A DNA stretch of 64,000 bases from Candidatus Wolframiiraptor sinensis (GTDB lineage: Archaea > Thermoproteota > Nitrososphaeria_A > Caldarchaeales > Wolframiiraptoraceae). The stretch is from NCBI GenBank assembly GCA_023261815.1, contig JALNKA010000001.1:97347-161346 (forward strand), read 5' to 3'. Position numbers and translations under genes: made by a program. Each line of letters starts with the position of its first letter. Within the stretch, counting starts at the first letter, position 1. The notes under the pieces are model-generated. The model was not told where the DNA came from. It saw only the letters and a program-made list of their open reading frames with translations, and did not search any database. Positions 23,059 to 44,455 of the stretch are shown here, piece by piece.

Positions 23059-23830
23059 ACCTCTCTAGGAACCTCCTTAAGGGCTCAGACCAGCTACTAA
23101 AATTCCTCAACTTGAGGATGACCTCCTCCCTTGGAAGCCCGATCTCCTCGAATCCCCTAGCGAGCGCCTCGGGCTTCGGGTCGATCATCGGGCCAAAGCA
23201 CCCATAGCATCCGCGAGCATAACTTGGGCAGAGGGCGCCGCATCCCTCAACCATTATCGGCCCGAGGCATGGTGTGCCTCGTGACACCATCACGCAGACA
23301 TTTCCCCTGCGCTTGCATTCTTGGCATAGGCTCTCGAGCCTGTGATAGGGCCTCTTCCCGACAAGCACCTGCTTCAAGACGCTCAGGAGCTGGAGCCTAT
23401 TAACTGGGCAGCCGCTGACCTGATAATCCACCTTAATGTGCTCGGATATCGGGGTGGTCTTATCAAGGCTGTTAATCCACTCGGGCCTGGGGTAAACTTG
23501 TCTGACGACATCCCCATGATCCATCCAGTTTCTCAGCGACTGAGGCCCGCCATGGACTGCGCAGGTGCCTATCGGGATCACGATCTTCGAGTTTCTCCTG
23601 ATGCTCTTTACAACCTCCATCTCGTGGGGCGTTGGGATCGATCCCTCGATTAAAGCGACATCATAGGGCCCTGGATCAATCCTGCTGCTGGCCTCGAGGA
23701 AATACGCGATCTCGACCTTCTCAATTATCGAGAGCAGGTCTTCTCCTAGGTTTATCAGCTCATCTTGGCATCCGCTGCATGAAGAGAATTTGAAGACCGC
23801 CAGCCTCAGCTTTCCACCATTCCTGCTCAT
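23045..23830 (-). CDS. hydD: sulfhydrogenase delta / [NiFe] small subunit
   Basis: SCSGCQ, GTCA and GCP cluster-binding motifs. Confidence 0.8.
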   Translation of the reverse strand: MSRNGGKLRLAVFKFSSCSGCQDELINLGEDLLSIIEKVEIAYFLEASSRIDPGPYDVALIEGSIPTPHEMEVVKSIRRNSKIVIPIGTCAVHGGPQSLRNWMDHGDVVRQVYPRPEWINSLDKTTPISEHIKVDYQVSGCPVNRLQLLSVLKQVLVGKRPYHRLESLCQECKRRGNVCVMVSRGTPCLGPIMVEGCGALCPSYARGCYGCFGPMIDPKPEALARGFEEIGLPREEVILKLRNFSSWSEPLRRFLERYERG

Positions 23831-23833
23831 ATC

Positions 23834-24661
23834 TCATCCACCCAGAAGTATTTTTTTAATGAGCCAGTACGGGAACACGGGTCCATTCTTGCGAACGAAG
23901 TAGGGGCCCACCTGGCAGTGGCCGCATAGACCGACTCCGCATTTCATCCTCCTCTCCAGGGAGAGGTAGATTTGATTCTCCTTAAACCCGACTTCCTCGA
24001 GGGCCTTGACCGTGAAACGCATCATTATCTCGGGGCCGCAAACGAGCGCAATAGTCTTTTCAATATTTATCCTAGCCATGGGTATGAGCTCGGTGACGAC
24101 GCCGACGTTATCCCTCCAAGTTTCATCGGGGTGATCAACCGTTAGCAGGAACTCTGTGTTCGGTATCTCCCTATATCGGTCGAACTCATAGCGGTAGAGA
24201 AGGAGGTTAGGCGTCCTCGCACCATAAAGTATGGTGAGCTTACCATATTTTTCTCGGTTTTTCTCGATCTCCAAAATGACCCCCCGGAGTGGAGCTAGCC
24301 CAATCCCGCCGGCCACTATGAGAACATCCTTTCCCACAAGCCTCTCAAGAGGCCAGCCCTTGCCATAAGGCCCCCTTAGGCCCACAATACTTCCCTCGCT
24401 CAGCTTAAACAGGTAATCTGTTAGGGCGCCCACGGACCTCACCGTCTGGACTATGATCCCGCCCTCTTCGCAGCCGCAGATGGAGACCGGTGTCTCGCCT
24501 ACGCCGGGAACATAAATCTCCGTGAATTGTCCGGGTTTAGGCTGCTCCACGAGCCCCCCATGAACTCTGAAGTAAAAGGTCTTGGTATCCGGCGTCTCCG
24601 GCACAACCTTAACTATCTCGGCTCTGCCAGGCGCCATGAGGGTTCTAACTATCTCTTGCAC
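23834..24661 (-). CDS. hydG: sulfhydrogenase gamma subunit (FAD/NAD(P)-binding with 2Fe-2S, PyrK-like)
   Basis: PyrK-like fold ending in a C-terminal CGVGLCGHC motif. GTG start. Confidence 0.8.
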   Translation of the reverse strand: MQEIVRTLMAPGRAEIVKVVPETPDTKTFYFRVHGGLVEQPKPGQFTEIYVPGVGETPVSICGCEEGGIIVQTVRSVGALTDYLFKLSEGSIVGLRGPYGKGWPLERLVGKDVLIVAGGIGLAPLRGVILEIEKNREKYGKLTILYGARTPNLLLYRYEFDRYREIPNTEFLLTVDHPDETWRDNVGVVTELIPMARINIEKTIALVCGPEIMMRFTVKALEEVGFKENQIYLSLERRMKCGVGLCGHCQVGPYFVRKNGPVFPYWLIKKILLGG

Positions 24662-25913: not shown

Positions 25914-26902
25914 CTATGATTGGGCCATCATCAGCCCCTTCAAGTTCGCACTTTCCACACTCACCATGTCACGGCTCAATTTGACGTTCATGTCTATTAT
26001 TATCTCCGCGATCTCAGCTGAGAGCTCGGCCTGCCTCTTCATGCTCCATATAAACTGCGTGAAGTTCGGGCAAAGCACGTTCACATCACACTTAATCGAC
26101 TTATACCTTAGTTGGTCTACGAGCTCGCTCTCCCCGAATTCCAGGTCCTCGAAATACTTCCTTATGGCCTCATTGGCCAGCTTAACATCCCTCGAGAATA
26201 GGGCTTTCATGACTTTTTCGCGAATATCTCTGCACCGCTCATAATATTTCGTCAATTTTGAAGCGTTTCTTGATCCAGCTCAACCTCGCAAGTTAGTATC
26301 TTTAGGACGCTTCTGGCGCCTAGTTTGGATAAATCTGCCATCCTCTCGAGACAGTATCCCACTATCGCGAGGAAGGATATCTCTGAGGACCGCGTAACCC
26401 CGAGCTTCTCGGCAAAGCCTTTCTTCTTATGAGCTATCGAAAGCGCCCTGGAAAACAGGTAGTAGAGCCTATTGACCTCCTCATCCCTGATCATTACCGT
26501 TTTGGCCAGCTCCCGGTTTCCCTCGATGAACGCCCTGAAATACTCCTCTTGCATAGATGAGGCCAAATTACATATTCTCTCCAGAATCGAGTATATTGGA
26601 GACTTAAGGACATCCAGCATGCATTGTAGAATGACATGCTGCTCATTTTCATCCATTATGGAAACCCCGGTCAATAGTTTCGCCGCCTCGCGAATTTCCT
26701 TAATATGCCTATAATTCAAGCGGGTCTCCGAGGAGACCTCAATCAAATCGACACCGGCAATATAGCTTCCAACAATCAGCCTATGCAGGAGGCCGGGCTG
26801 ATCGCATAAATCCGCGTTTATCCTGCATGCTTCAAGAACGTAATCCGAGCCAGCCTGGGCGGGCCAAAGAATGAGCGAGCCATCATGAGCCTCCTCAACC
26901 AC
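25914..26902 (-). pseudogene. PhoU-domain protein (two PhoU repeats) split by a 1-nt deletion at the A-run 26255-26258
   Basis: PhoU repeat (ELAKTVMIRDEEVNRLYYLFSRAL...YCLERMADLSK) in ORF 26252..26902. The second repeat continues in ORF 25914..26255 in the -1 frame. Confidence 0.55.
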
Positions 26903-27037: not shown

Positions 27038-27080
27038 CCTCTTGATACTTATCCGATGTTCTCGGATAAGTATCAAGAGG
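27038..27080. promoter_or_regulatory. perfect 19-bp inverted repeat with a 5-nt spacer (CCTCTTGATACTTATCCGA-TGTTC-TCGGATAAGTATCAAGAGG)
   Basis: Read directly from the sequence. It sits at the 5' end of the nuoE-like gene, just downstream of an AT-rich divergent promoter region (TAGATATATGATATATATCGA). Confidence 0.7.
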
Positions 27081-27485
27081 AACGGGGAAAGGAATTCGGC
27101 GAATCTTATCGAGTCTTTGCAAAAGCTGCAGGAGAGATATGGGTTCTTGCCGAAGGACGCTCTAATGAAGCTTTCCAAGGATGTGGGAGCTCCTTTGAGC
27201 AGGATATTCGGCGTCGCGACTTTCTATCACCAGTTTAAGCTGGAGTCGCCTGGAAAAGTCCTGATCTCGGTTTGCATGGGAACAGCATGCCATCTTAGGG
27301 GCGATGCCAACAACTACGAGTTCCTGAGGAGGTTTTTAAGAATAGCACCAGGCAAATCCGTCAGCGATGATGGCCTATTCTCCTTAGAGAAGGCTAGGTG
27401 CTTCGGCTGCTGTAGCCTGGCCCCAGTAGTGAGAGTTGGCGATAAGCTCATCGGCAAGGCCACGCCCAGGAGCTTCAGAGAATAA
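27042..27485 (+). CDS. NuoE/HoxE/HydC-like thioredoxin-fold [2Fe-2S] protein; the start is uncertain
   Basis: GVATFYHQF...CMGTACHLRG...CFGCCSLAPV motifs. The annotated TTG start lies inside the palindrome. An alternative ATG at 27056 in another frame gives a NuoE-like MFSDKYQEERGKEF start, which would need a frameshift. Confidence 0.7.
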   Translation: MILIRCSRISIKRNGERNSANLIESLQKLQERYGFLPKDALMKLSKDVGAPLSRIFGVATFYHQFKLESPGKVLISVCMGTACHLRGDANNYEFLRRFLRIAPGKSVSDDGLFSLEKARCFGCCSLAPVVRVGDKLIGKATPRSFRE

Positions 27486-27549: not shown

Positions 27550-29523
27550 ATGATGAGACAGGAGTATTGGACGCTAATGGATCCATGCTGCGATTACTGC
27601 CTTCATTCGGCGAGCAATCCTTGCGTGAAGTATGTTGTCTGCCGGGTGCGCGGGCCATTCTGTCACAAGAGCGTGATGTGCAGGAATAGGAGGCAGCAGA
27701 GGATCAAGAAGGTGCTCTATGGTCCGCAGGGCGTTAGAATCAATGTCGGCGCGTCGAGTTGCGGCTTGGCCGCTGGGGCTGAGAAGGTTCTCGAAGCGGT
27801 GAAGGATAATCTCAGGTCTATGGGTGTGGAGGCGGAAGCCTCTGCAGTGGGCTACCTGGGATTATGCTTCATGGAGCCCTTCATCGAGATACGCAGCGAG
27901 GATGGCCCCTCCCCGATTTACGGCCATGTATCCCCGGATAATGTTGGTGAAATATTTGCAAAGTATTTTGAGGAGGGTAGCGTGGATGGCGCATTTGAGA
28001 TCAGAAGGCGCACAGGCAGATTCAAGGACGAGGATAAGGTTCCATTACTTGATGAGCTCGATGTATGGAGGAAGCAGGTAAAATGGGTTTCTAGGAACTG
28101 CGGAGTGATTAACCCGGAGTCGATTGAGGAGTACATCGTCTCGGGCGGATATGAGGGGCGCTCGAGAGCGCTAATGATGAAACCCGAGGAGGTTATAGAG
28201 GAGATCAGGTTATCGGGGCTTAGAGGCAGGGGCGGAGCCGGATTCCCAACCTGGCTCAAGTGGAAGGTGTGCCGAGAGCAGCCATCTAAGGAGAAGTACA
28301 TCATCTGTAATGCCGATGAAGGGGATCCGGGAGCTTTCATGAATAGGCTGCTCGCGGAGTCCGATCCACATAGAGTTCTGGAGGGCCTCATAATTGCCGG
28401 CTACGCGATAGGAGCCTCTCATGGCGTGATATTCGTTAGGGCTGAGAAACCCCTCATGGCCGCCAGACTCGAGAAGGCCGTGGAAGATGCTCGCAGATGG
28501 GGCCTCTTGGGTGAGAACATTCTAGGGACTGGATTCAATTTCGACGTGAGGGTGATGAGGAGCGCCGGCGCATTCGTATGTGGAGAGGAGACGGCGATGA
28601 TAGCGGCCATAGAGGGGAGGCGGGCGATGCCTAGGCAGAGGCCTCCCTACCCGGCTTCGAAGGGTCTCTGGGATAAGCCGACGGTAGTCAATAATGTCGA
28701 GACGCTGGCACACGTCGCGACGATAATGGCTCATGGATGGCAGGAGTTCGCGAAGTACGGCACCGAGCGGAGTAGGGGGACGAAGATGTTCTGCGTAACC
28801 GGTGGCGTGAAGAGAACTGGTGCATTCGAGGTCCCCATAGGAACCACCATCAGAACCCTCGTGTGCGATATAGCTGGAGGGCCGCATGAGGGCAGGAAGA
28901 TAAAGGCGGTCCAGATAGGCGGCCCATCAGGCGGCTGCCTCCCGGAGAGGCTATTCGATCTGCCCATCGATTATGAGAGCCTCCAAGAGGCCGGCGCGAT
29001 AATGGGCTCCGGGGGATTGGTCGTGATAGACGACTCCAATTGCATGGTTGATGTCGCCAGATACTTCACGTCATTCACGCTGGCGGAGTCATGCGGCAAA
29101 TGCGTGCCATGTAGAACAGGCACGAAGACCCTGTATGATCGCTTATCAGCCATAGTTGAGGGGCTGGGCGATCCAGATGATCTGCGGCTGCTGGAAGAGG
29201 TTGGAACGATGATGAAGGATGCGGCCCTATGCGCACTGGGCGGAACAGCGCCCAATCCGATACTATCCTCGCTCAAGTACTTCAAAGACGAGTATGAGGA
29301 GCATATAGTGGGGAAGAGGTGCCCGGCGAAGGTTTGCAGCAAGCTCGTGACATACAATATAAACAGAGAGCTTTGCGTCAAGTGCGGGTTATGCGCTAAA
29401 TCATGCCCAGCAAACGCGATAATTAAAACCGACGATGGATTCTTCGCGGTTGATCAGCATAAGTGCATCAAGTGCGGCACATGCTTCATCACATGCCCGA
29501 GGGACGCTGTTGAGAAGAGGTGA
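27550..29523 (+). CDS. NuoF/HoxF/HydB-like NAD(P)H-binding flavoprotein with an N-terminal Trx-like domain and C-terminal 2x[4Fe-4S]
   Basis: GLRGRGGAGFPT (NADH), the FMN and N3 cluster region (ESCGKCVPCR), and C-terminal CVKCGLCAKSCP / CIKCGTCFITCP. The true start may instead be ATG 27676. Confidence 0.85.
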   Translation: MMRQEYWTLMDPCCDYCLHSASNPCVKYVVCRVRGPFCHKSVMCRNRRQQRIKKVLYGPQGVRINVGASSCGLAAGAEKVLEAVKDNLRSMGVEAEASAVGYLGLCFMEPFIEIRSEDGPSPIYGHVSPDNVGEIFAKYFEEGSVDGAFEIRRRTGRFKDEDKVPLLDELDVWRKQVKWVSRNCGVINPESIEEYIVSGGYEGRSRALMMKPEEVIEEIRLSGLRGRGGAGFPTWLKWKVCREQPSKEKYIICNADEGDPGAFMNRLLAESDPHRVLEGLIIAGYAIGASHGVIFVRAEKPLMAARLEKAVEDARRWGLLGENILGTGFNFDVRVMRSAGAFVCGEETAMIAAIEGRRAMPRQRPPYPASKGLWDKPTVVNNVETLAHVATIMAHGWQEFAKYGTERSRGTKMFCVTGGVKRTGAFEVPIGTTIRTLVCDIAGGPHEGRKIKAVQIGGPSGGCLPERLFDLPIDYESLQEAGAIMGSGGLVVIDDSNCMVDVARYFTSFTLAESCGKCVPCRTGTKTLYDRLSAIVEGLGDPDDLRLLEEVGTMMKDAALCALGGTAPNPILSSLKYFKDEYEEHIVGKRCPAKVCSKLVTYNINRELCVKCGLCAKSCPANAIIKTDDGFFAVDQHKCIKCGTCFITCPRDAVEKR

Positions 29524-29529
29524 TGTTGG

Positions 29530-30147
29530 ATGAAGATCAAGATAAACGGATTGGAGGTTGAGGCCAAGGAGGGCGAGAGAATACTCGATGTAGCTGATCG
29601 CCTAGGAATCAGGATACCAACCTTATGTTATCTCAGGGGCATATATGAGGGTGCCTCCTGCAGGATATGCGTCGTCGAGCTGAATAATGGGAAGCTCATA
29701 CCTGCATGCGCATACGAAGTATCCGACGGCCTCGTGCTCAGCACGGATACTCCTAGGATTAGAGAGAGCAGGCGCCTAACCCTGGAGCTGCTGCTCTCCG
29801 CCCATAGAATCTCATGCCAAGATTGCCCCAAGAAGGGAGAATGCGCCCTAGTAGAGTTATGCTCAGAGTACGGCGTCGAGGGGATACCGGTCTGCGCCGA
29901 ATGCTCCCTCCACGAAGAGGACTGCTTCCTCGGGAGAGGCGAGATCTGCTTGGGCCCGATCACAATCAGCGGCTGCAAAGCTGAATGTATTCGTGATGGA
30001 AAGCCGTGCGAGGGATGTAGGGGCCCCGTCACTAGGAGAGACGTGTTAGAGCGGGGTCGAGCAATATACCTCGAGCATGGCATACCGCTTGAAATGTTCT
30101 CGAGAAGCTCAAGATCTACTGCGCCTCCTCACGCGAATTCGATCTAA
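29530..30147 (+). CDS. HydA/NuoG/HoxU N-terminal-type iron-sulfur protein (2Fe-2S ferredoxin plus His-ligated 4Fe-4S) as a stand-alone 205-aa protein
   Basis: C33-x10-C44-x2-C47-x12-C60, then H92-x3-C-x2-C-x5-C, then a non-canonical 8-Cys segment. Confidence 0.7.
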   Translation: MKIKINGLEVEAKEGERILDVADRLGIRIPTLCYLRGIYEGASCRICVVELNNGKLIPACAYEVSDGLVLSTDTPRIRESRRLTLELLLSAHRISCQDCPKKGECALVELCSEYGVEGIPVCAECSLHEEDCFLGRGEICLGPITISGCKAECIRDGKPCEGCRGPVTRRDVLERGRAIYLEHGIPLEMFSRSSRSTAPPHANSI

Positions 30148-30184: not shown

Positions 30185-31474
30185 ATGATGAGCATCTCGG
30201 GTATTGATAGGATAGTGGGCCACGCCACCCTGGACGTGGATATCGATGGAGGAGCGCTGAATGCGCGTTTCAAGGTACTGAATGATCCGCGTTTCATAGA
30301 GGCCATAGTGATCGGCAAGAAGTACCATGAAATTCCGTCAATCGTTTCGAGGATATGCGGGCCTTGCAGCGTCAGCCACACGATAACCGCCATAATGGCC
30401 GTGGAGAAAGCTCTCGGGATAAGCGTCCCCGAGCCCGTGAAGATCCTCAGGAAGATAGCCGTGCTCGGAGAGGTGGCAGAAAATCACCTACTGCATCTCA
30501 CGCTCGTCGTCATGCCGGAATACTTTGGATACGATGATCTTCTCGAGGTCGCGAAGTACAAGCCCGAATCCCTCAGGAAGATACTGCTCATCAGATCCCA
30601 GCTTTCCAAGGTGATGGAAATGATATCAGGGAGGCTCGTCCACCCAAGCGCGCTATCAATAGGCGGGTTCACGAGAATGCCTGGAGAAGCGAGGCTCGAG
30701 GATGCAAAGAGCATCTTGAAGGAGATCAAAAGCAGGATAAGCGAGATCGTAGAGCTATTCCTCGAGACGGAGTTCCCCGAGTTTGAGGTATTAATGGAGG
30801 CCTGTGCATCCCTCAAGGACGGCTACCTCTACATCGGCGATGAGATCATCACCTCAGATGAGCGCGAGGTTAGAGCCGAGGACTATAAGAGAATATTCAT
30901 AGAGGATGTACAGCCTTACACAACTTCAAAGAGCGTAACGCTCGAGGGAATGCCAGTATACGTTGGGCCTAGGGCCAAGGTAAACTTGAAAGCGGACCTG
31001 CTTTCAGATCAGGCTAAGTCTTATCTCAAAATGAGGAGCTTCCCCCTGAGAAGCCCGTTCGATAATCTCCGGGCGCAAGCCATCGAGCTAATTCACTGCA
31101 TAGATGCCATGCAGATGTTGATCGAGGATGTGGCGAGCATTTCCAGCATAGGATCCGAGCAGAGAGAATCTAGGATCATGGCCAGAGAGGGGGCTGGAGT
31201 TGGCGTGTCCGAAGCTCCACGCGGCCTACTAATACACCATTACGAGTTTAATCGATGGGGGAATGTCATCTACGCAAATGTGATAACGCCGACGACGATA
31301 AACTCCAGGCACGTGGAGGTCGCCGCCCTAGAATTAATCAGGCACTACTTCTACGAGGACATGCCGGTCAAAGAGATAGAGCGCTATCTAAGAAAGCTCG
31401 TGCAAGCGTTTGACCCGTGCCTAGGCTGCGCAACCCACTCCGTCAAGATAAACATCAGGGGGCTCAAGCCATGA
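30185..31474 (+). CDS. [NiFe] hydrogenase large subunit (group 3, HoxH-like)
   Basis: RICGPCSVSH (L1) and DPCLGCATH (L2) ligand motifs; 429 aa. Confidence 0.85.
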   Translation: MMSISGIDRIVGHATLDVDIDGGALNARFKVLNDPRFIEAIVIGKKYHEIPSIVSRICGPCSVSHTITAIMAVEKALGISVPEPVKILRKIAVLGEVAENHLLHLTLVVMPEYFGYDDLLEVAKYKPESLRKILLIRSQLSKVMEMISGRLVHPSALSIGGFTRMPGEARLEDAKSILKEIKSRISEIVELFLETEFPEFEVLMEACASLKDGYLYIGDEIITSDEREVRAEDYKRIFIEDVQPYTTSKSVTLEGMPVYVGPRAKVNLKADLLSDQAKSYLKMRSFPLRSPFDNLRAQAIELIHCIDAMQMLIEDVASISSIGSEQRESRIMAREGAGVGVSEAPRGLLIHHYEFNRWGNVIYANVITPTTINSRHVEVAALELIRHYFYEDMPVKEIERYLRKLVQAFDPCLGCATHSVKINIRGLKP

Positions 31475-32859
31475 GAATCGGGATTTACTCGTTCGGCGGA
31501 TGTGAGGGCTGCAGATACTGGCTAATAGACTCCCTTCTGAGGATATGCGGGGAGCTGGGCGCCGAGATAGCCTACGAGCCGCTCATAGGCCTCTCCAAGG
31601 AAAGCCCGGAATACGATGCGGTGGTAATCGAAGGGGCTGTTTGCACGGAGGAGGATCTCGAGAAGATTCGAGGTCTGAGATCGCGGGCGAAATACGTCAT
31701 AGCCCTGGGGTCATGCGCCCTTCTAGGCGGGGTGCCGGGCAATAAGAGGTTCGCGGACCAGCATGCTGTTGAAAGAGTTTACCTCGGCAAACCTCTGCCG
31801 AAAAAGCCCCTCGACGTGAAGCCCGCAATCGCTCATGTGCGAGTGGACTACTGGATTAGAGGCTGCCCCCCGAACCGGGAAAACTTTGAGAAAGTCTTTC
31901 GAGCGATAATCTCCGGTATAGCCTCCGGAGAGCCGTTCAAGCTCCATGAGAGGCGCATAGAGTTCTGCAGGGATGAGTTCGCCAAGATCGAGGGAAGCGT
32001 GCTCAGGCTCGATGGAGACAAGTGCATAGTCTGCGGGAGATGCGTGGGCGTATGCGAGAAAATGGGAGTCTACGCGATAGACTTCGCCTACAGGAGCGTG
32101 AGCACGATGGTGACAACGCCCTTCGAGCTGCCATTCGATGAGAGCGCGTGCGTGCTATGCGGCCAGTGCGCGCTGGTCTGCCCGGTCGGCGCCATGCGCG
32201 AGAGAAGCGACTTGGAGAAGGTTCAGAGAATGCTGGCCAAGCCCACGGCGTTGAAGGCGTACATCGAGCCGGAGAGCCTGGCGGCCATGTCCAGCTACTT
32301 CAACCGCGAGGTTGAGGTAATAGTCGGAGCATTACTCGCGAGGGGCTTCGAGAGCGTCGCGATGTACGTGCCGGAGCCCCGCGCCGATGCCGATAAGCCG
32401 CTGATCCCCATGAGCGAAGCTGAGCGGAGGTTCGTCAACCTGCTTCATCCCGGGTTGGCTGAGAAGCTCTCGGATCCCCCAGCTCTGCCAATCGGCTCAT
32501 CAGTCCTGATAACACCATGTCTGGCCAAGAAGGCGCAGGCACGCGAGGGGGTGGTCTTAACGACGCGGGAGGCGATCAAGCTCATCTCCAGCGTGGACTT
32601 GGATGAGGTTGATGAGGTCTCGCCGATAACGCCCGCCAAGATGGGCGGAGCCTACGGGGAAGTTCATGGACCGGATGCCGTGATCAGGTTCTTGGATGAA
32701 TGCGCCGAGGGGCTGAGCGTCAGGGAGCCGACAGTGCTGAAAATATGTCCCGGCGGATGCATCAGAGGTGGTGGGCAGCCATATTACAGCGAGGACCTGT
32801 ATCGGAGGATGAGCAAGGCGGCGGCGAAGATATCCTCCGCGCTCATGGCCGTCGGCTAA
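31471..32859 (+). CDS. [NiFe] hydrogenase small subunit (HoxY-like) fused to a 2x[4Fe-4S] ferredoxin and a reduced, Cys-depleted [FeFe]-hydrogenase H-domain-like C-terminus
   Basis: MRIGIYSFGGCEGC...GSCA...GCPP (proximal cluster). Then CIVCGRCVGVCE and CVLCGQCALVCPVG. Then EKVQRMLAKPTALKAYIEP..., ITPCLAKK (L2-like), VVLTTRE and ICPGGCIRGGGQP (L3-like). There is no cysteine where the L1 TSCCPGW motif is expected. Confidence 0.8.
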   Translation: MRIGIYSFGGCEGCRYWLIDSLLRICGELGAEIAYEPLIGLSKESPEYDAVVIEGAVCTEEDLEKIRGLRSRAKYVIALGSCALLGGVPGNKRFADQHAVERVYLGKPLPKKPLDVKPAIAHVRVDYWIRGCPPNRENFEKVFRAIISGIASGEPFKLHERRIEFCRDEFAKIEGSVLRLDGDKCIVCGRCVGVCEKMGVYAIDFAYRSVSTMVTTPFELPFDESACVLCGQCALVCPVGAMRERSDLEKVQRMLAKPTALKAYIEPESLAAMSSYFNREVEVIVGALLARGFESVAMYVPEPRADADKPLIPMSEAERRFVNLLHPGLAEKLSDPPALPIGSSVLITPCLAKKAQAREGVVLTTREAIKLISSVDLDEVDEVSPITPAKMGGAYGEVHGPDAVIRFLDECAEGLSVREPTVLKICPGGCIRGGGQPYYSEDLYRRMSKAAAKISSALMAVG

Positions 32860-33350
32860 GAGGGCCGCGAAAAGTTCGATGGATTGCGCTTGAGGAATCG
32901 GGATACTTCCTCCAAAATTTTTGGGATTGCTTTCTCCACCTCAACGCTCAATTTTATTCCCGGGCTTATGTCCTTGACCCCCACGCCGATCAAGAAGATC
33001 CTTCGGGGCATTTTCTCCCCGAATAGCTCATAGCCCAGCTTTATGGCCGAGACCACATCGATGTCATGCAGCGATTGGATCTCATCCATGGATCCTTGAG
33101 TGAGTTCCCCTAGATCGATCACGACAACCTCTCCGGGGGCTAGTCCCGATTTTATGGAATCTATTATCACCACTTCATCGAACTCCATGATCTCATCGAG
33201 TAGCGCGAAGACGTTTGAGCCGCTCTCGAAGATTCTCACCTCGGCGGGCATCTCGCGCTCGAGCAGGATCTCGCCCACGATTAAGCCGACAGCATCATCG
33301 CCCATCAGCCTGCTGCCAACGCATAGGATTAAAGTCCTTTGAGCCCCCAT
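32856..33350 (-). CDS. hydrogenase maturation endopeptidase (HycI/HoxW family)
   Basis: The ILCVGSRLMGDDAVG motif typical of hydrogenase C-terminal proteases. Confidence 0.8.
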   Translation of the reverse strand: MGAQRTLILCVGSRLMGDDAVGLIVGEILLEREMPAEVRIFESGSNVFALLDEIMEFDEVVIIDSIKSGLAPGEVVVIDLGELTQGSMDEIQSLHDIDVVSAIKLGYELFGEKMPRRIFLIGVGVKDISPGIKLSVEVEKAIPKILEEVSRFLKRNPSNFSRPS

Positions 33351-33409: not shown

Positions 33410-34474
33410 CTAGCAGATTCTCGGAATCGGGTCTCCAATGGGCATCGGCAGATACCTTAATCCGCCTATCTCGGTCTCGACCACGACGCCCTCATGCTCG
33501 CCCGAGAACCACCCTATGATCTCGGCCTCGCGGCCCATCGGGTGGGATCGAAGAGCTTCCAGAACATCTTCCGCGAACTTCTCGGAGACCGCTAAGACCA
33601 CTCTTCCCTCGCATGCCAGTTCAAGGGGGTCTATGCCGAGTATCTCGCAGCCGGTTCTCACCTCATCGCGGATCGGTATGAGTGCCTCTTTAACCAAGAT
33701 GCCGAAGCCCGTGGCCTCGCTCCACTCGTTTAGAAGCGCCGCCAACCCTCCTCTCGTTGGATCCTTCGCCGCTAGGACTCCTCCAGCCTCGAGAGCCCTC
33801 TCCATTAGGTGGTTTAATGGCGCGGTGTCGGATCTTAGGCCCGGCGCCTCGAAGCCAAGCTCACCCCTCGCGGCTATTATCGTCATTGCGTGATCTCCGA
33901 TGGGCCCTGAAACTATCAGCCTATCTCCCGGTTTTATATTTCGTGGATCAAGCCACCTCGATCTCAGGGACCTGCCATCAGATGCCGCCTTCTCCAAGTT
34001 CTTGTCCAGATGCGGGCTTCTCCTCCCGATGCCGGCCGTATTGATTATCATCTCATCGAGCTTTCCCCTCTCGACGACCTTCGTGTCTCCTGTCACGATC
34101 TCGACTCCCGCCTCCTCGGCAGCCTCCTCCATGCTCGATAATATTCTATCGAGCTTCTCGATCTCGAATCCTTCCTCGATCACGAGGGCGCATGAGATCG
34201 CCAGCGGCTCGCTCCCGATCACGGAGAGGTCGTTCACGGTCCCTGAGATGCTCAGCCTCCCGATATCCCCTCCGGGGAAGAAGAGGGGCTTAACCGTGTA
34301 TGAGTCTGTCGTGAAGGCTATTCCGTTGACCACGGCTGAGTCCGTGAGAAGCGTAAGAGGGATTTCAACGCTTCTCCTCTGCTTGAACCTCGGTAGAATG
34401 TGCTCCTTGATGAGCTTGTGCATGTATAGGCCGCCAGCACCATGCGCTATGCTTATCTTCTCATCCGCCTTCAC
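33410..34474 (-). CDS. hypE: hydrogenase maturation protein HypE
   Basis: AIR-synthase-related fold ending in the conserved C-terminal PRIC. Confidence 0.9.
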   Translation of the reverse strand: MKADEKISIAHGAGGLYMHKLIKEHILPRFKQRRSVEIPLTLLTDSAVVNGIAFTTDSYTVKPLFFPGGDIGRLSISGTVNDLSVIGSEPLAISCALVIEEGFEIEKLDRILSSMEEAAEEAGVEIVTGDTKVVERGKLDEMIINTAGIGRRSPHLDKNLEKAASDGRSLRSRWLDPRNIKPGDRLIVSGPIGDHAMTIIAARGELGFEAPGLRSDTAPLNHLMERALEAGGVLAAKDPTRGGLAALLNEWSEATGFGILVKEALIPIRDEVRTGCEILGIDPLELACEGRVVLAVSEKFAEDVLEALRSHPMGREAEIIGWFSGEHEGVVVETEIGGLRYLPMPIGDPIPRIC

Positions 34475-34496
34475 CAGCGAAGCCCACCCCCAAACC

Positions 34497-35675
34497 TCAT
34501 AACCTCCTTACATATTTTGTTCCATGATTTATCCTGCATGCTTCACTCATACACCTGAAATCCTTGACGAGAATCCTGTTCTGCGCCCAGATCCTGCATG
34601 TTCCCTCAAGCCCCACCATCGGTGGGCCGATCGGGGTTGATGGCGTGCACGCCTTCATGTATAACGGGCAGTCCGGTGGATTTATTATCCCCTTTATTAT
34701 CTCGGCGCATCTGGCCTCTTGCGGGAAGTAGTCTCCCCCACCGCGCTCTAGCCCGTAAACCCGCCTCGCGTCGTCCTGGGAGAACTTCTCCTTGAGATTC
34801 ATCGCGCTCGCGGGTATGATCGCGACCCCCCTCCAGTAGCCATCCTCGAAATCGAAGACCTCTTGTAGCGCTTTCTGCGCCTTCAGGTTTCCTTCCCACG
34901 TCACGGATCTCACGTACTCGTTTTCCATTCTCGGAACATTCTCCCTCAACTGCTTGAGGATCATGTATATGGCTACAAGGACATCTATGGGCTCGAATCC
35001 CGCGAAGACCATGGGCTTCCCGCACTTATCGAAGTACGGCTTATACGCCCTCATGCCGCTCACGGTCGAGGCATGGCCTGGGTTTATGAAAGCATCTATC
35101 TCGAGATCCTCAGATTCGGCTAGAAACCCCACCGCCGGCGGAACATACCTATGAGCCGAGAGAACCTTAAGATTTCTCGGAAGGCCTTTCAGAATATAGT
35201 ACGCTACTGTGGGCGCAGTCGTCTCGAATCCAGCTCCCAAGAAGACGTACTCGCTATCAGGATTGCTGCTGGCGATCCTAACGGCGTCCATGAAGCTGTA
35301 CACGACCCCGACCTTCCCTCCATCGGCCGCGCAGTCCTCGAGCGAGATCATCCTCGAGCCCTTTGCCCTCGACACGTCGCCGTATGTGAGGACGTTGATT
35401 CCATCTAGTGCGAGCTTCACCGCCACGTCTATATCAGATGCGGGGGTTATGCAGACGGGGCACCCGGGTCCACCCCTAACCTCGATATTATCCGGGAGGA
35501 GAGCCCTAATACCCCAGTGAGTTATAGTCCATTCATGAGTTCCGCACACGTGCATTATCCTTATCTTTGGAAGATCCCTCGCGAGATCCCAAATCCTCGC
35601 GACTAACTTTCTAGCTAGAGCCGGGTCCCTATATCTCGAGAGAACGGCTTTCATGGGATCGGCGGAATCCACCAT
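34497..35675 (-). CDS. hypD: hydrogenase maturation protein HypD
   Basis: CGTHE and GPGCPVC motifs. Confidence 0.9.
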   Translation of the reverse strand: MVDSADPMKAVLSRYRDPALARKLVARIWDLARDLPKIRIMHVCGTHEWTITHWGIRALLPDNIEVRGGPGCPVCITPASDIDVAVKLALDGINVLTYGDVSRAKGSRMISLEDCAADGGKVGVVYSFMDAVRIASSNPDSEYVFLGAGFETTAPTVAYYILKGLPRNLKVLSAHRYVPPAVGFLAESEDLEIDAFINPGHASTVSGMRAYKPYFDKCGKPMVFAGFEPIDVLVAIYMILKQLRENVPRMENEYVRSVTWEGNLKAQKALQEVFDFEDGYWRGVAIIPASAMNLKEKFSQDDARRVYGLERGGGDYFPQEARCAEIIKGIINPPDCPLYMKACTPSTPIGPPMVGLEGTCRIWAQNRILVKDFRCMSEACRINHGTKYVRRL

Positions 35676-35760: not shown

Positions 35761-36252
35761 ATGAGCTGGAGGGAGAGGCTCGAGCAGATCCTCAACAGCG
35801 TATCGGTGAGCGGCGGAGACCTGGTTATCGTCGGGATAGGAAACACGCTTCGCGGAGATGATGGAGTTGGAGTCGAGCTCGCAAGAATCCTGAAAGAGTC
35901 CATGAAGAGCGAGCGCGCAAAAGTATTCATCGTGGAGGATAAAGTTGACCTAATTCCGAAAATGCTGAGGGATGTGAATCCCGGGATCATTCTGCTCTTG
36001 GATGCGGCGGACTTCGGAGGCAGGCCAGGAGAGATCAGAATCATGAAGCTTGAGGAAGCCTCGAGAAAAGCCATCTCGACGCATGAACTGCCCCTAGACC
36101 TTATCATGAAAGCAGCCGGAATAAGCGCACCGGCATACGTCCTAGGAATACAAGTTGAAAACCTAGAATTTGGAAAGGAAGTGAGCCCCCAAGTTAAGGC
36201 AGCGGCGAATGAGGTTGCGAGCCTCCTATTAAAGCTCGTGGTGAGCTTGTGA
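35761..36252 (+). CDS. hydrogenase maturation endopeptidase (HycI family), second copy
   Basis: GIGNTLRGDDGVG motif. Lies immediately upstream of the group-4 hydrogenase cluster. Confidence 0.8.
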   Translation: MSWRERLEQILNSVSVSGGDLVIVGIGNTLRGDDGVGVELARILKESMKSERAKVFIVEDKVDLIPKMLRDVNPGIILLLDAADFGGRPGEIRIMKLEEASRKAISTHELPLDLIMKAAGISAPAYVLGIQVENLEFGKEVSPQVKAAANEVASLLLKLVVSL

Positions 36253-36329
36253 TATTACTGCGTTATAAACTCCGCATGCGCCGAGACTAAACTTAAATTT
36301 GGGTTACCGGACTGTAGTGTTGACCTTTC

Positions 36330-36659
36330 ATGGAGGAGCTCATCATCGCGCTTACCGTAACATTTCTTGTGATCCTCCTCATTTATCTCTTAGGCGGCAG
36401 GTTATCCGTTAAGGCTCCTAAAAGCAGGATGAAGCTCGAGCCCTATGCTTGCGGGGAGAGCCTTCCCCCGGCTAGAAGTCCGATAAGGCTACTCTTTTTC
36501 AACTTTGCCGCGCTATTCCTAGTATTCGATGTCATCGCCCTCTTCCTGGCATTCACGATAAATATTCCGCCAGCATATAAGCCCGGAGTAATCAGCCTTC
36601 TCATGCTTTACATGCTCGTGCTCGGGATCGCGATCCAGCTCCTGGGAAGAAGGAGGTGA
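36330..36659 (+). CDS. NuoA/ND3-like membrane subunit
   Basis: Three TM helices and the LEPYACGE motif. Confidence 0.75.
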   Translation: MEELIIALTVTFLVILLIYLLGGRLSVKAPKSRMKLEPYACGESLPPARSPIRLLFFNFAALFLVFDVIALFLAFTINIPPAYKPGVISLLMLYMLVLGIAIQLLGRRR

Positions 36660-36666
36660 ATGCCAT

Positions 36667-37107
36667 TTGGGCCTTGTCGAGAAGCTCGTGAGAAAATGTA
36701 GGGCGAGAAGCCCTTGGATACTCCTATTCGATACCGGAGCATGCAATGCATGCGATATAGAGATCGCCGCTTGCCTCACACCGCGCTATGATGTCGAGAG
36801 ATTCGGGGTTCTCGCGAAAGGCAGCCCTAGGCACGCGGACATACTCGTCATTACCGGGCCCGTTACCAGGCAGGTCAGGGATAGGCTCATTAGGATCTAT
36901 GAGCAAATGCCGGAGCCGAAGTACGTGGTCGCCGCAGGCACCTGCGCTACAAGCGGCGGGGTATACTGGGGGTGCTACAATACGTATCCGAGCCTTGACT
37001 CCGTCATTCCGGTTCATGCGTATGTCTCGGGTTGCCCAGTGAAGCCTGAGGCGATTCTGAGGGCGATCAGCGTGCTCGTCGAGAAGATCGAGAAGGGGGA
37101 GGCTTAA
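36667..37107 (+). CDS. NuoB/PSST-like (group-4 hydrogenase small subunit type)
   Basis: DTGACNACDIE, GTCATSGG and GCPVKPE cluster N2/proximal-cluster motifs. Confidence 0.85.
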   Translation: MGLVEKLVRKCRARSPWILLFDTGACNACDIEIAACLTPRYDVERFGVLAKGSPRHADILVITGPVTRQVRDRLIRIYEQMPEPKYVVAAGTCATSGGVYWGCYNTYPSLDSVIPVHAYVSGCPVKPEAILRAISVLVEKIEKGEA

Positions 37108-37108
37108 G

Positions 37109-37579
37109 TTGAGCGAGGAGGGTCTTCTCAGAAAGATTACTGAGAGATTTGGAGATAAGATAATTGAAGCTAAGGTTCTCGGGAAGAGAAGGGTCTCCAT
37201 CCTAGTTTCTCCTGATGCTTACAAGGATGTCGTGAGATATGCCGCCCAAGATCTCGGCTTGGAGTTTCTCAGCTGCCTGAGTGGGGTTGATCGGGGAGAT
37301 AGCCTTGAGGTCGTGGTGCACTTGGGATACTCGATGCACGTGCTCATCAAAACCCGCGTCTCTAAGGATGATCCAGCCGTGGACTCGATAACCGATATTC
37401 TCCCAGCCGCGAGCCTCTACGAACGGGAAATACATGATCTGCTGGGCATCGCATTCAAGGGCCACCCGAATCTCAAGAGGATCTTCTTGCCCGAGGATTG
37501 GCCCGAAGGAGTTTACCCGCTTAGGAAGGATTACTCTCCAGAGCATCCAAAGCCATTGAGGGGTGGTGAGGCCGTGTGA
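37109..37579 (+). CDS. NuoC (30 kDa)-like subunit
   Basis: NuoC fold (ERExHDLLGIxFxGHP). Confidence 0.8.
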   Translation: MSEEGLLRKITERFGDKIIEAKVLGKRRVSILVSPDAYKDVVRYAAQDLGLEFLSCLSGVDRGDSLEVVVHLGYSMHVLIKTRVSKDDPAVDSITDILPAASLYEREIHDLLGIAFKGHPNLKRIFLPEDWPEGVYPLRKDYSPEHPKPLRGGEAV

Positions 37580-38769
37580 ACTTCGAGGTTCCGATAGGCC
37601 CCCAGCACCCAATACACGTCGAGCCCCTGATGCTCAGGCTGAAGGTCGAGGGGGAGCTGATAGTAGACGCCGACGTAGATGTCAGCTATATTCATAGGGG
37701 CATCGAGAAGGCTCTCGAGCTCAGGCCATATATTCAGGGACTCTACCTCGTTGAAAGAATATGCGGCATATGCAATGCCGCTCAATCGCTCTGCTACTGC
37801 CTCAATGTCGAGCAGCTTCTCGGCAAGGAGGCTCCCCCTAGGGCGAGGTATCTCAGGATCGTGGTGGAGGAGCTTAGCAGGATTCACAGCCACCTCCTCT
37901 GGCTCGGCCACTACCTCCACACGCTGGGATTTGAGACCCTCTTCATGTACTTCTGGAGGGATAGGGAGAGGGTAATGGACATGCTGGAGCTCATCACGGG
38001 TAATAGAGTCACCACGGCCTATAACACGATAGGCGGAGTGAGGAGGGATCTGCCTCCGGGTGCGGAGCAGAAGCTCAGGAGAACATTGGATTACATCGAG
38101 GAGAGAGTGCGCTACTATGAGAAGGTGATAGACTCGGAGCCGACCATCCTCGCGAGAACTCAGCGGGTTGGGATCCTCAAGCCGGGAGATGCGGTGAGAA
38201 TGGGCGTCACGGGCCCGCACCTAAGAGCCTCAGGAATAAAGCACGATGTCAGGCTCGATGACCCGTATAGCGGGCATGATGAAATCCCGTTCAACGTCAT
38301 CACGTGGGACACGTGCGATTGCTACGCCAGAGTGAAGGTTAGGCTCAGGGAAACCAGCGAATGCGTGAACATGATACGCTATGCTCTCGATCACATGCCA
38401 TCCGGCGACTATAGGCTGAAGATCCCGCCGTTCTTCAAAGCCCCTCCCGGGGAGTCGTTATCGAGGGTTGAGGCGCCGAGGGGCGAGCTCGTCCATTACT
38501 CGATCTCGGATGGCGGTGATAGGCCATACAGGTATAGGGTTAGGACGCCGACGCTCGCGAACCTCCTATCCGTAGTAGAGATGCTCAGGAGCAGGGGCGA
38601 CTACGAGGTCTACATAGCCGATGTCCCGGCGATCCTCGGCGGAATAGATCCATGCATATGCTGCAGCGCGAGGATCTTGATCACCGACGAGGCCAAGAAA
38701 AGGAGGATGATCACGACGCTCGACGACATCATAAGATTCTCGCGCGGAAGGAGGGTTGAGAGAAGATGA
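37576..38769 (+). CDS. NuoD-like / group-4 [NiFe] hydrogenase large subunit with Ni-Fe ligand cysteines retained
   Basis: ERICGIC near residue 61 and DPCICCSAR near 38647-38673. Both Cys pairs that true NuoD has lost are present here. Confidence 0.8.
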   Translation: MNFEVPIGPQHPIHVEPLMLRLKVEGELIVDADVDVSYIHRGIEKALELRPYIQGLYLVERICGICNAAQSLCYCLNVEQLLGKEAPPRARYLRIVVEELSRIHSHLLWLGHYLHTLGFETLFMYFWRDRERVMDMLELITGNRVTTAYNTIGGVRRDLPPGAEQKLRRTLDYIEERVRYYEKVIDSEPTILARTQRVGILKPGDAVRMGVTGPHLRASGIKHDVRLDDPYSGHDEIPFNVITWDTCDCYARVKVRLRETSECVNMIRYALDHMPSGDYRLKIPPFFKAPPGESLSRVEAPRGELVHYSISDGGDRPYRYRVRTPTLANLLSVVEMLRSRGDYEVYIADVPAILGGIDPCICCSARILITDEAKKRRMITTLDDIIRFSRGRRVERR

Positions 38770-39731
38770 TCGAGAAGATCCTTGCCACGGTATTCTTCCC
38801 CGGAGCAATCTTCATACTGGCGGTCTCGCTCTTTTACGAGTGGGTTGATAGAAAGCTGTATGCGAGGTTCCAGAACAGGGTTGGCCCCCATCTGGCGGGC
38901 CCCTTTGGGCTCTTCCAGCCGATCGCGGACCTCATCAAGCTACTCTCGAAGGAAGATATCGTTCCAATGGCCACCGATAGGTTCCTCTTCACGCTGACGC
39001 CGATTCTAGCTCCAGCCCTGATCCTCTTCGCCTGCATGTTCCTGCCAGTGGCCGGGCCATCCGGCATAATCTCGTTTGAGGGAGACCTGATAGCAGTGAT
39101 AGCACTTCTCTCGATCTATACGATAACGGTGTATCTCGCCGGCGAGGGCTCGAATAACAGGTTCGCCTCTGTGGGCGCTGTCAGGGCCGCTGTCCAGCTG
39201 CTGGGCTACGAGATACCGCTGACGCTCAGCCTCCTGAGCGTGGCCTTAGCCGCGGGCTCGCTGAGTATTCGCGGAATAGTTGAGGCTCAGGCAGAGAGAG
39301 GTCTCTGGTTCATCGCCGGAATACAGGCAATAGGTTTCGCAATCTTCATCATTGCATCGCAGGCCGAGATGGAGAGGATACCATTCGATATACCGGAGGC
39401 CGAACAAGAGATAGTCGCCGGGTGGGAGGTCGAGTACTCCGGGAAAAGGCTTGCATTATTCAGGCTCTCAAAGGATCTCGAGCTATTCCTCCTCTCGGGG
39501 CTCGGCGCCGCGGTATTCCTGGGAGGCCCAATAGGCCCGGTGATACCGGGGCTCGAGCCGATGCTCTACACAATCTACTTCATCCTGAAGTCCATAATAG
39601 TCCTCGCGATATTCACTTTGGTCAGGGCCCTTTTCGCGAGGCTCAGGATCGATCAAATGGTCTCCTTCTCATGGAGGTATCTCATGCCCCCGGCCATGAT
39701 TCTCATAATCCTGACGGAGGTGATCATGTAG
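38766..39731 (+). CDS. NuoH/ND1-like membrane subunit
   Basis: Eight-TM NuoH pattern ([14 protein letters not shown]). Confidence 0.85.
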
Positions 39732-39733
39732 GG

Positions 39734-40084
39734 ATGAAGGTTCCCGGGCGCCTAGTGGCGGAGGCCCTGAAAAGCTTGTTCAGGAGAAGGGCCACGATTC
39801 TCTACCCATACAGGGAGCTCGACAAAGTTCATCTACCCGAGGGATTCAGGGGAAGAATAGAGTTCGATCGCTCGAAGTGCATCGGGTGCCAGCTCTGCTT
39901 CAGGGTCTGTCCCGCGAAGGCCATCGAGATCGTAGATGATGAGAAGGGAAAGAGGCCGATCTTCTACATCTACAGGTGCATATACTGCGCTCAGTGCGCC
40001 GAGGTCTGCCCGACCAAGGCGATAAGCATGAGCAAGATCTTCGAGAACATCGCCCTAAGAAAGGAGGACATGGTGGTGAGATGA
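39734..40084 (+). CDS. NuoI (TYKY)-like 2x[4Fe-4S] subunit
   Basis: [12 protein letters not shown] and [12 protein letters not shown] motifs. ATG at 39734 directly after the nuoH stop. Confidence 0.85.
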
Positions 40085-40326
40085 TGGAAGCAGTTCTCCA
40101 CATAGCGATGATAGCGCTCACACTCGTCTTCGCGATAATGGCCGCCGAGCTGAAGGACATGATGAAAGCCGTGCTCGCGTTCATGTGCGCGAACATAACC
40201 ATGGCCGCGATATTCTACCTCCTTGGAGCGCCATACCTCAGTGTTTTCCAGCTGCTAGTGTACGCGGGCGCGGTCACGATACTCCTTCTAGCAACGATAC
40301 ATGCTGGCGAGGAGAGGGGTGACTGA
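40081..40326 (+). CDS. NuoJ/ND6-like N-terminal half (3 TM)
   Basis: Small hydrophobic protein in the NuoJ position. Its ATG overlaps the nuoI stop. Confidence 0.5.
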
Positions 40327-40327
40327 G

Positions 40328-40585
40328 ATGGAGATTACGAGAATAGCCGCCGCGATACTCGCGATACTCCTAGCAGCAACTTTACTGGCCTACTCGCCTA
40401 AAATAATCCAGAACATCCGGGCGCCGAGCCTCGAGCCCACGAGGATCGAGGAGAACCCGCAGTTCCTCTGGGCTAATCGCTGGCTCGACCTCCTAGTCCA
40501 GGCATTCATGCTCTTTGCGGTCATCGCGGCGGTCTCCGCCCAGCTTAGGAGGGATATGGGCTCCCGGAGGGCGGAAGGAGAATGA
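40328..40585 (+). CDS. NuoJ/ND6-like C-terminal half (2 TM)
   Basis: A second small membrane protein, one nucleotide after the previous stop. Together the two are NuoJ-sized. Confidence 0.45.
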   Translation: MEITRIAAAILAILLAATLLAYSPKIIQNIRAPSLEPTRIEENPQFLWANRWLDLLVQAFMLFAVIAAVSAQLRRDMGSRRAEGE

Positions 40586-44452: not shown

Positions 44453-44455
44453 AAA

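Follow-up and report, generated by a model that had tools for sequence, protein, structure and literature searches.

Hybrid hydrogenases that join [FeFe] and [NiFe] modules were reported in 2024 and were surprising, given that each complex apparently has two redundant H2 sites (Greening et al., Cell 2024; PMC11216029). In these complexes, defined as group F [FeFe]/group 3f [NiFe] hybrids, the gene for a HyhS–HydA fusion protein is contiguous with hyhL, hydB, hydC and a NuoG-like hydD; the same study described 21 group F genomes, modelled a five-subunit bifurcating complex, found that one fusion protein produced H2 once it had been matured artificially with [2Fe]adt and speculated about a different substrate for one of the modules. 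A second system is the bacterial NiFe-HydABCSL of Acetomicrobium mobile, whose structure was solved earlier (Feng et al. 2022; PMC8880783). Its HydA has no H-cluster motif; in the position of the H-cluster, an Fe–S cluster terminates a branch. In the bifurcating HydA1 of Acetobacterium woodii, Ser301 replaces a Cys ligand of the H-cluster cubane, leaving the infrared signature of the H-cluster and the activity unaffected (Katsyv et al., PMC10021017). Here, we analysed a 64,000-nucleotide stretch of the genome of Candidatus Wolframiiraptor sinensis (a thermophilic archaeon of the order Caldarchaeales; assembly GCA_023261815.1, contig JALNKA010000001.1, positions 97,347–161,346 of the forward strand; hereafter, the window), in which a gene at 31471–32859 (+, 462 codons) encodes a fusion protein of three parts—a [NiFe] small-subunit domain, a 2×[4Fe-4S] ferredoxin domain and a C-terminal homologue of the [FeFe]-hydrogenase H-domain. 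This last part (the final 218 codons, residues 245–462) belongs to a conserved clade with serine at one cubane-ligand position and no proton-relay cysteine, and most likely holds a plain [4Fe-4S] cluster rather than a complete H-cluster.

The start codon of the fusion gene, an ATG at 31471, shares bases with the hyhL stop codon (ATGA); a GTG start at 31417, given in the list of open reading frames (ORFs), was rejected because all homologues start at this ATG (MRIGIYSF...). Residues 1–155 (31471–31935, +) make up the HyhS part, the proximal-cluster domain of a [NiFe] small subunit (Pfam Oxidored_q6, E = 1.2e-22, residues 11–145), in which Cys11, Cys14, Cys82 and Cys132 are invariant (homologue alignment A1). 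Residues 174–244 (31990–32202, +) form a 2×[4Fe-4S] ferredoxin-like domain (Pfam Fer4_7 and Fer4_21; residues 180–242 in the Pfam scan) that aligns with residues 135–254 of 8a6t_A (T. kivui HydA1) and is the counterpart of the FS4A/FS4B clusters of clostridial HydA. Residue 245 begins at 32203, and the short H-domain homologue (32203–32856, +) extends to the stop codon at 32859; it is documented below by profiles against the Protein Data Bank (PDB), an AlphaFold model with fold search and the ratio of non-synonymous to synonymous substitution rates (dN/dS).

Residues 245–462 are a true homologue of the [FeFe]-hydrogenase H-domain, with similarity far above chance. A profile of the C-terminal domain built from 25 homologues (alignment A2) had no PDB match below E = 0.5 other than [FeFe]-hydrogenases (best E = 2.2e-20), and a profile that also included three bridging relatives with short H-domains (A3) reached E = 1.7e-31 and aligned from the start of the domain through the L1, L2 and L3 motifs. 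Single-sequence phmmer searches against the PDB gave three colinear segments on the bifurcating HydA of T. kivui and T. maritima (on T. kivui HydA1, 8a6t_A: query residues 174–290 on 135–254, 346–383 on 350–396 and 421–446 on 491–516), and the NCBIfam models for group A6 and group A [FeFe]-hydrogenases matched the ferredoxin part and the L3 region. AlphaFold2 predicted the H-domain homologue confidently, both within the full-length model (predicted local distance difference test (pLDDT) of ~90) and alone (pLDDT 91.4, predicted template-modelling (pTM) score 0.88). Foldseek searches of the PDB returned [FeFe]-hydrogenases for 49 of the 50 top matches of the full-length model and for all 50 of the domain model, including 8a6t_A with E = 3.9e-10 and a query-normalised template-modelling (TM) score of 0.71. 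An earlier description made from the letters of the DNA alone (the sequence-only reading) had proposed a shortened H-domain here, to be verified by structure prediction and by alignment to Pfam Fe_hyd_lg_C (PF02906). The profiles and the predicted structure bear out the proposal; the Pfam model itself stayed below its gathering cut-off of 22.1 bits (14.3 bits with the whole protein and 17.2 with the domain by itself).

The motifs named in that reading all lie at the positions it gave and in the frame of the gene 31471–32859: PMSEAERRF at 32407–32433, ITPC with Cys350 at 32518–32520, VVLTTREAIKLI, and ICPGGCIRGGGQP at 32743–32781; the end that it assigned to the domain (32791) falls short of the stop codon. 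It was likewise correct that the L2 and L3 cysteines are kept and that the Cys–Cys pair of L1 is absent, with 112 residues free of cysteine between Cys237 and Cys350. L2 reads TPCLAKK and L3 reads CPGGCIRGGGQP, so that the L2 and L3 cysteines, the equivalent of Lys358 and the GGGQP loop are all present. Cys350 is the L2 ligand (CpI Cys355; an invariant column, also identified in the alignments) and Lys353 corresponds to CpI Lys358, and the L2 glutamate (CpI Glu361) is glutamine. Within the L3 motif, which is invariant in alignment A2, Cys426 (32746–32748, +) corresponds to CpI Cys499 and Cys430 (32758–32760, +) to the bridging CpI Cys503.

The claim that L1 is missing did not survive alignment. 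Hidden Markov model (HMM) alignment to 8a6t_A and 7q4v_A places the segment P313-M-S315-E-A-E318 (32407–32424, +) on L1, with Ser315 (32413–32415, +) on Cys299 of T. kivui HydA1 and Ser301 of A. woodii HydA1—that is, on the [4Fe-4S]H ligand position occupied by Cys300 in CpI—and the preceding residue, Met314, on the proton-relay cysteine (CpI Cys299). In the clade of proteins that share the serine (hereafter, the Ser-type clade), L1 takes the form [IV]P-x-S-x-A-E, Pro313, Ser315 and Glu318 being invariant, and it is only the relay cysteine that has gone: this position is unconstrained in the family (M/A/V/F/G/Y/L/E/R/K). Ser315, Cys350, Cys426 and Cys430, which map onto the four [4Fe-4S]H ligand positions, are invariant or nearly so in 33–50 homologues and, together with Glu318, make up the invariant core of the clade. 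We initially took serine at the Cys300 position to mean that no cubane is bound, and dropped this idea on the basis of the L1 of A. woodii HydA1 (TSCSPGW) and its published Ser301 ligation (PMC10021017). Because serine at the same position is functional in that active enzyme, the cubane site of the window protein is most likely intact, the predicted loss being confined to the relay cysteine. Cys407 (in DECAEG) was considered as a substitute fourth ligand and rejected, as it occurs only in the closest relatives and is not conserved.

Homologue searches recovered approximately 50 proteins of 413–501 amino acids with the same three-part architecture, and the H-domain homologue is present in every one of them. 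The nearest genomes are those of Candidatus Wolframiiraptor allenii and W. gerlachensis (77% identity). Searches with the domain by itself covered less of the family: a word-indexed search gave just 2 partial proteins, the domain profile recovered few family members and none of the fusions with a Cys–Cys L1, and an exhaustive single-domain search yielded 26 proteins, of which several very long repeat proteins (2,000–5,000 amino acids, with many short stretches) were disregarded. The three cysteines, the serine and the glutamate are invariant over 28–96% identity. The dN/dS of the H-domain homologue, 0.12–0.14 in three pairwise comparisons (one with an unsaturated dS of 0.69), shows purifying selection on the domain; elsewhere in the protein it was 0.04–0.17. 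This speaks against the sequence-only reading of a vestigial relic. A decaying relic or cofactor-free scaffold (the 'purely structural' option of that reading) would fit a domain that is ~150 residues shorter than group A H-domains and scores below the Pfam threshold, and is very improbable in light of the low dN/dS, the ligands that stay invariant down to 28% identity, the confident compact fold (pLDDT 91) and the presence of the domain in all homologues found; decay as such we reject on the same grounds.

The shortness of the domain is real and is no peculiarity of the window protein. A Brockarchaeota fusion protein (P0138, 487 amino acids, MBO3803110.1), encoded in the same five-gene cluster (locus L081), has Cys–Cys in L1 (IIPCCYSAKKF; CC-type) and scores 57.5 bits with Fe_hyd_lg_C, above the threshold. 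It aligns with the window protein collinearly over the full length (32% identity, E = 5e-76) and has the same deletions relative to group A enzymes, so the short H-domain is a family trait. Two further members, P0129 and P0037, have exactly the L1 pattern of A. woodii HydA1 (CS-type), P0129 being from the same type of operon (locus L084). In a neighbour-joining tree of the ferredoxin and H-domain region, rooted with group A enzymes (200 bootstraps; a rough method), all HyhS fusions formed one clade (99.5%), in which the CC-type P0138 and the CS-type P0129 branch first and the proteins with any other residue before the serine (x-Ser), including that of the window, are monophyletic (93.5%). Group F was represented in the tree by P0138, recovered by the exhaustive search, as a proxy: its class is named in PMC11216029 and it has the same gene cluster. 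The branching order supports loss of the relay cysteine as a derived state within a group F-type lineage, and the Ser-type clade spans Thermoproteota and Asgard archaea.

Beside these fusions, we noted a 453-amino-acid HydA-like protein (P0145; locus L083, 5586–8362) with a [2Fe-2S] cluster, a His-ligated cluster, 2×[4Fe-4S] and an equally short H-domain, without fusion to HyhS. Its L1 reads LSRCP, with the ligand cysteine only, and its gene adjoins a NuoE/F fusion, a small ferredoxin and a 657-amino-acid FAD (flavin adenine dinucleotide) protein, a system different from that of the window. P0145 may be another enzyme of the bifurcating (Bfu) type that reuses a cut-down H-domain.

Five co-directional genes, of which that of the fusion protein comes last, form the cluster hydC–hydB–hydD–hyhL–fusion, an order shared by more than 20 loci of Caldarchaeales, Desulfurococcales, Thermofilaceae, Ignisphaera, Pyrobaculum and Bathyarchaeia (L001–L025) and by the Brockarchaeota locus L081. 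HydC (27042–27485, +) is a NuoE-like thioredoxin-fold [2Fe-2S] subunit (Pfam 2Fe-2S_thioredx, E = 6.9e-37) found in the same position in at least 20 related loci. HydB (27550–29523, +; 657 amino acids) is a NuoF-like subunit for flavin mononucleotide (FMN) and nicotinamide adenine dinucleotide (NAD(H)) of the Bfu type (Pfam Complex1_51K, NADH_4Fe-4S and Fer4; NCBIfam NuoF_pre_CCxxC) with an N-terminal CCxxC prefix and a C-terminal 2×[4Fe-4S] ferredoxin domain. Its best PDB matches, over residues 64–656, are Bfu B subunits (NfnB, 9n5u_B, E = 6e-206; A. mobile NiFe-HydB, 7t2r_B, E = 7.5e-194). HydD (29530–30147, +; Pfam Fer2_4 and NADH-G_4Fe-4S_3) is the conduit subunit: its residues 1–125, with a [2Fe-2S] and a His-ligated [4Fe-4S] cluster, match residues 6–129 of bifurcating HydA (7q4v_A, E = 1.1e-25), and its Cys-rich C-terminal part is similar to the medial- and distal-cluster half (C-terminal) of group 3 small subunits (ShyD 157–209, E = 6e-12). 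HyhL (30185–31474, +) is a group 3 [NiFe]-hydrogenase large subunit (Pfam NiFeSe_Hases; NCBIfam ShyA, E = 2.6e-79) in whose translation the motifs RICGPC...H and DPCLGCATH are intact and the C terminus is extended for processing by a protease. Convergent with the operon is a gene for a HycI-type [NiFe] maturation endopeptidase (32856–33350, −; Pfam HycI, E = 5.8e-18), which occupies the same place in L001–L003 and L084, followed by two genes for [NiFe] maturation (33410–35675, −) that are syntenic in L001 and L002 with 85–91% identity and that we take to be hypE (33410–34474) and hypD (34497–35675) from the sequence (C-terminal PRIC in HypE).

Several features of these loci were noted in passing. 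Residues 1–57 of HydB (27550–27720) match the 'CCxxC motif-containing NuoF prefix domain' (NF040902, 63 bits) and lie outside the matches to PDB Bfu B subunits, which start at approximately residues 63–98. The [NiFe] small subunit is apparently split, with the layout [HydA-N + HyhS-C]–HyhL–[HyhS-N + HydA-C], which looks like a reciprocal domain exchange. In the CC-type Brockarchaeota locus, HydB (L081, 4412–6088) has 558 amino acids and no match to the C-terminal ferredoxin domain, whereas HydB of the CS-type locus (608 amino acids) has this domain, as does that of the window; CC-type complexes may differ from window- and CS-type complexes in bifurcation to ferredoxin. Upstream of hydC, the window has a divergent gene with a PhoU domain (26252–26902, −), and a GAF-domain gene stands directly upstream of hydC in both the CC-type (L081, 3021–3873) and the CS-type locus (L084, 1224–2387).

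Taken together, HydC, HydB, HydD, HyhL and the HyhS–H-domain fusion probably constitute an electron-bifurcating five-subunit hybrid hydrogenase. With moderate confidence, we infer from the ligand pattern a cofactor and an electron path for the H-like domain: a plain Cys3Ser [4Fe-4S] cluster, in an accessory arm of a bifurcating [NiFe] enzyme. H2 chemistry would take place at the intact [NiFe] site of HyhL, a view supported by the HyhL motifs and the adjacent HycI protease gene, and bifurcation would occur at HydB. The H-like domain would most likely bind one [4Fe-4S] cluster through Ser315, Cys350, Cys426 and Cys430 and most likely lack a catalytic [2Fe] subsite, serving with the two ferredoxin-type clusters before it as an accessory or terminal arm for electron transfer and docking. 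Such an arm would be comparable to the A4/A5 arm of A. mobile NiFe-HydABCSL, with a plain cluster in place of the H-cluster.

We favour the plain Cys3Ser cluster because positions of the [2Fe] pocket are replaced or deleted while the cubane ligands and Glu318 stay invariant. The APS of the APSVR motif holds a cyanide ligand of the [2Fe] subsite in CpI. In a MAFFT alignment with group A enzymes, the window protein has E-P-E at this place (residues 266–268, 32266–32274, +), with Glu266 nearly invariant among homologues; of the other positions that contact [2Fe] in CpI, Met353 is replaced by threonine and Met497 is variable. The KSPQQ helix and the TGGVMEAA segment of group A enzymes are absent, and the region of E279/E282 is shortened. 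The most divergent members (P0038 and L024) keep the serine, Glu318 and the three cysteines and lose GGGQP and the Lys358 equivalent, so the conserved core is one of cluster binding rather than of the [2Fe] pocket.

The same residues can be read as a complete H-cluster—a Cys3Ser cubane with a [2Fe] subsite, assembled by an archaeal route yet unknown—that lacks the relay and acts as a slow second H2 site or as an H2 or redox sensor, in the manner of the putative sensory group C/D [FeFe]-hydrogenases; we regard this as a serious though less probable alternative. Several observations weigh for it and against a plain cluster. All four cubane-ligand positions are kept, among them the equivalent of the bridging cysteine, Cys430, and most members conserve CPGGCxxGGGQP and a lysine or arginine at the Lys358 position, which fits retention of [2Fe]. 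In A. woodii, whose exact L1 pattern P0129 and P0037 share, the H-cluster is normal despite a serine ligand (PMC10021017), and a possible role of Asgard hybrid hydrogenases in H2 sensing has been put forward in a preprint (10.1101/2024.07.04.601786). Moreover, because a related group F fusion was active in H2 production after addition of [2Fe]adt (PMC11216029) and the CC-type Brockarchaeota relative shares all of the deletions, the short fold may still hold an H-cluster. A scan of 32 ORFs of the window (including all of at least 250 amino acids outside the hyp genes) gave no radical-SAM or HydF-like gene, in agreement with the sequence-only reading that hydE, hydF and hydG are lacking from the window. 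This absence of maturase genes would speak against an H-cluster, but it is hardly informative in archaea, as the full HydEFG set is present in just 5 of 130 archaeal genomes with [FeFe]-hydrogenases (PMC11216029). Also against a complete H-cluster are the unconstrained relay position, the change from APS to EPE with deletion of segments that form the pocket in group A, the members that lose GGGQP and the Lys358 equivalent yet retain the cubane ligands, and the sub-threshold Fe_hyd_lg_C score, which contrasts with the 57.5 bits of the CC-type relative. Within the plain-cluster reading itself, Glu318 could be the fourth ligand instead of Ser315.

The acidic residues suggest two further possibilities. 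The domain may have been repurposed to carry another kind of metal site; one example would be a cubane that Cys430 connects to a site with Glu266, Glu268 and Glu318 as its lining. Acidic residues are conserved where group A enzymes have small or hydrophobic ones, and action of one module on another substrate has been speculated (Greening et al., PMC11216029); against this, Glu266 also occurs in the CC-type relative and no gene in the neighbourhood (the window ORFs scanned) points to another substrate, and we consider such a site quite unlikely. In a broader and still unlikely version, the Ser-type clade would be a natural non-hydrogenase descendant of the H-domain that has kept the cubane site and, with the conserved Glu266, Glu268 and Glu318 now lining the old [2Fe] cavity, reuses this cavity as another metal site or as a gated or terminal redox centre that tunes bifurcation.

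Whatever its cofactor, this large, apparently unremarked monophyletic branch of Thermoproteota and Asgard proteins, with a strongly conserved '[FeFe]' module that has serine at one ligand position and no relay cysteine, bears on why hybrid complexes appear to have two hydrogenase modules. If the module of the Ser-type branch holds only an Fe–S cluster, the redundancy vanishes for this branch, and its enzymes would be bifurcating [NiFe]-hydrogenases in which an H-domain has been recycled as wiring, in parallel to A. mobile. If the module is not a hydrogenase, most 'hybrid' hydrogenases of Thermoproteota would be [NiFe]-only enzymes, and the series CC → CS → xS would represent a graded natural progression in the loss or repurposing of an H-cluster site. 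Proteins of this family currently carry annotations such as '4Fe-4S dicluster-binding protein' or 'F420-reducing hydrogenase gamma subunit', and the archaeal capacity for [FeFe]-hydrogenase activity could be overstated where Ser-type proteins are counted as [FeFe]-hydrogenases in metagenome surveys.

The window is a hydrogenase island, with three [NiFe]-hydrogenases and hypD, hypE and hypF. A second group 3 [NiFe]-hydrogenase, at 21760–24661 (−) and 19398–21704 (−) and adjoining hypF, comprises a large subunit (CGIC...DPCISC), a separate small subunit and an NAD-binding/DHODB Fe–S subunit, and by its gene content looks like a sulfhydrogenase. The third, at 35761–45940 (+), is a group 4, Mbh/complex-I-like membrane-bound [NiFe]-hydrogenase cluster with genes for a HycI-like protease, a NuoB-like subunit, a NuoD-like large subunit (37576–38769; CGIC and DPCICC motifs), a NuoH-like subunit and three antiporter-like subunits. 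The window also encodes a GltD/SudA/NfnB-like protein (15156–16751, +; Fer4_20 and Pyr_redox_2), and near the CS-type operon there is a similar pair of genes (L084, 11223–13474).

Several known H-domain relatives provide points of comparison. The group C/D putative sensory [FeFe]-hydrogenases (for example, T. maritima HydS) are H-domain homologues in which the proton-relay cysteine is replaced, and eukaryotic Nar1/NARF are H-domain homologues without the [2Fe] subsite that carry Fe–S clusters only. Their contexts differ from that of the window protein—a PAS domain and a C-terminal cluster in the former, cytosolic Fe–S assembly in the latter—and in neither is the H-domain, which is full-length, fused to a [NiFe] small subunit. 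A. woodii HydA1 (bifurcating group A; PDB 7q4v) has a natural exchange of cysteine for serine at the same [4Fe-4S]H ligand position, and its type of bifurcating HydA gives the best sequence matches of the window domain. In contrast to the window protein, it is a catalytic subunit that retains the relay cysteine, a full-size H-domain (~370 amino acids) and an Fe_hyd_SSU tail.

The A. mobile NiFe-HydABCSL (PDB 7t2r/7t30) likewise places a [NiFe] module on a HydABC-type bifurcating core, and the window genes encode the whole Bfu-type set: an FMN/NAD-binding HydB with the 2×[4Fe-4S] ferredoxin domain (the 7t2r_B match above), HydC, a large subunit and a small subunit reduced to the proximal-cluster domain, as in A. 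mobile. The plain Fe–S cluster at the end of a branch, in a HydA-derived part without H-cluster motif, is a feature of A. mobile that the window protein would share if our favoured reading is correct. However, A. mobile HydA is a single protein of 692 amino acids (clusters A1–A5) with HydS separate, whereas HydA is split in the window, with its N-terminal part in HydD and its C-terminal part behind HyhS. In addition, the C-terminal domain of A. mobile HydA is not detectably similar: 7t2r_A matches the ferredoxin part only and is missing from the profile matches.

The closest correspondence is with the group F hybrids. The window protein shows their fusion of a small-subunit domain, 2×[4Fe-4S] and an H-domain (Oxidored_q6; profile E-values of 2e-20 and 2e-31; TM score 0.71), encoded contiguously with HyhL, the diaphorase HydB, the thioredoxin-like HydC and the NuoG-like conduit HydD; the hosts are archaeal (TACK/Asgard), and the short H-domain is shared with the Brockarchaeota protein P0138. 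It differs, together with its clade of ~50 proteins, in having serine for the ligand cysteine, no relay cysteine and an Fe_hyd_lg_C score below the threshold. Against the PF02906 motif set (L1 TSCCPxW, L2 MPCxxKxxE and L3 ExMxCxxGCxxGGGQP), the L1 of the window protein, IPMSEAE, does not conform, and of the conserved cysteine ligands by which group F is recognized it has three of four, the fourth being Ser315 and the relay position Met314. By analogy with A. woodii, in which serine is a known functional substitute, this departure is a formal one that concerns the identity of a cysteine. Overall, the window locus either belongs to the hybrid-hydrogenase family published in 2024 or is its sister, and its architecture was already known.

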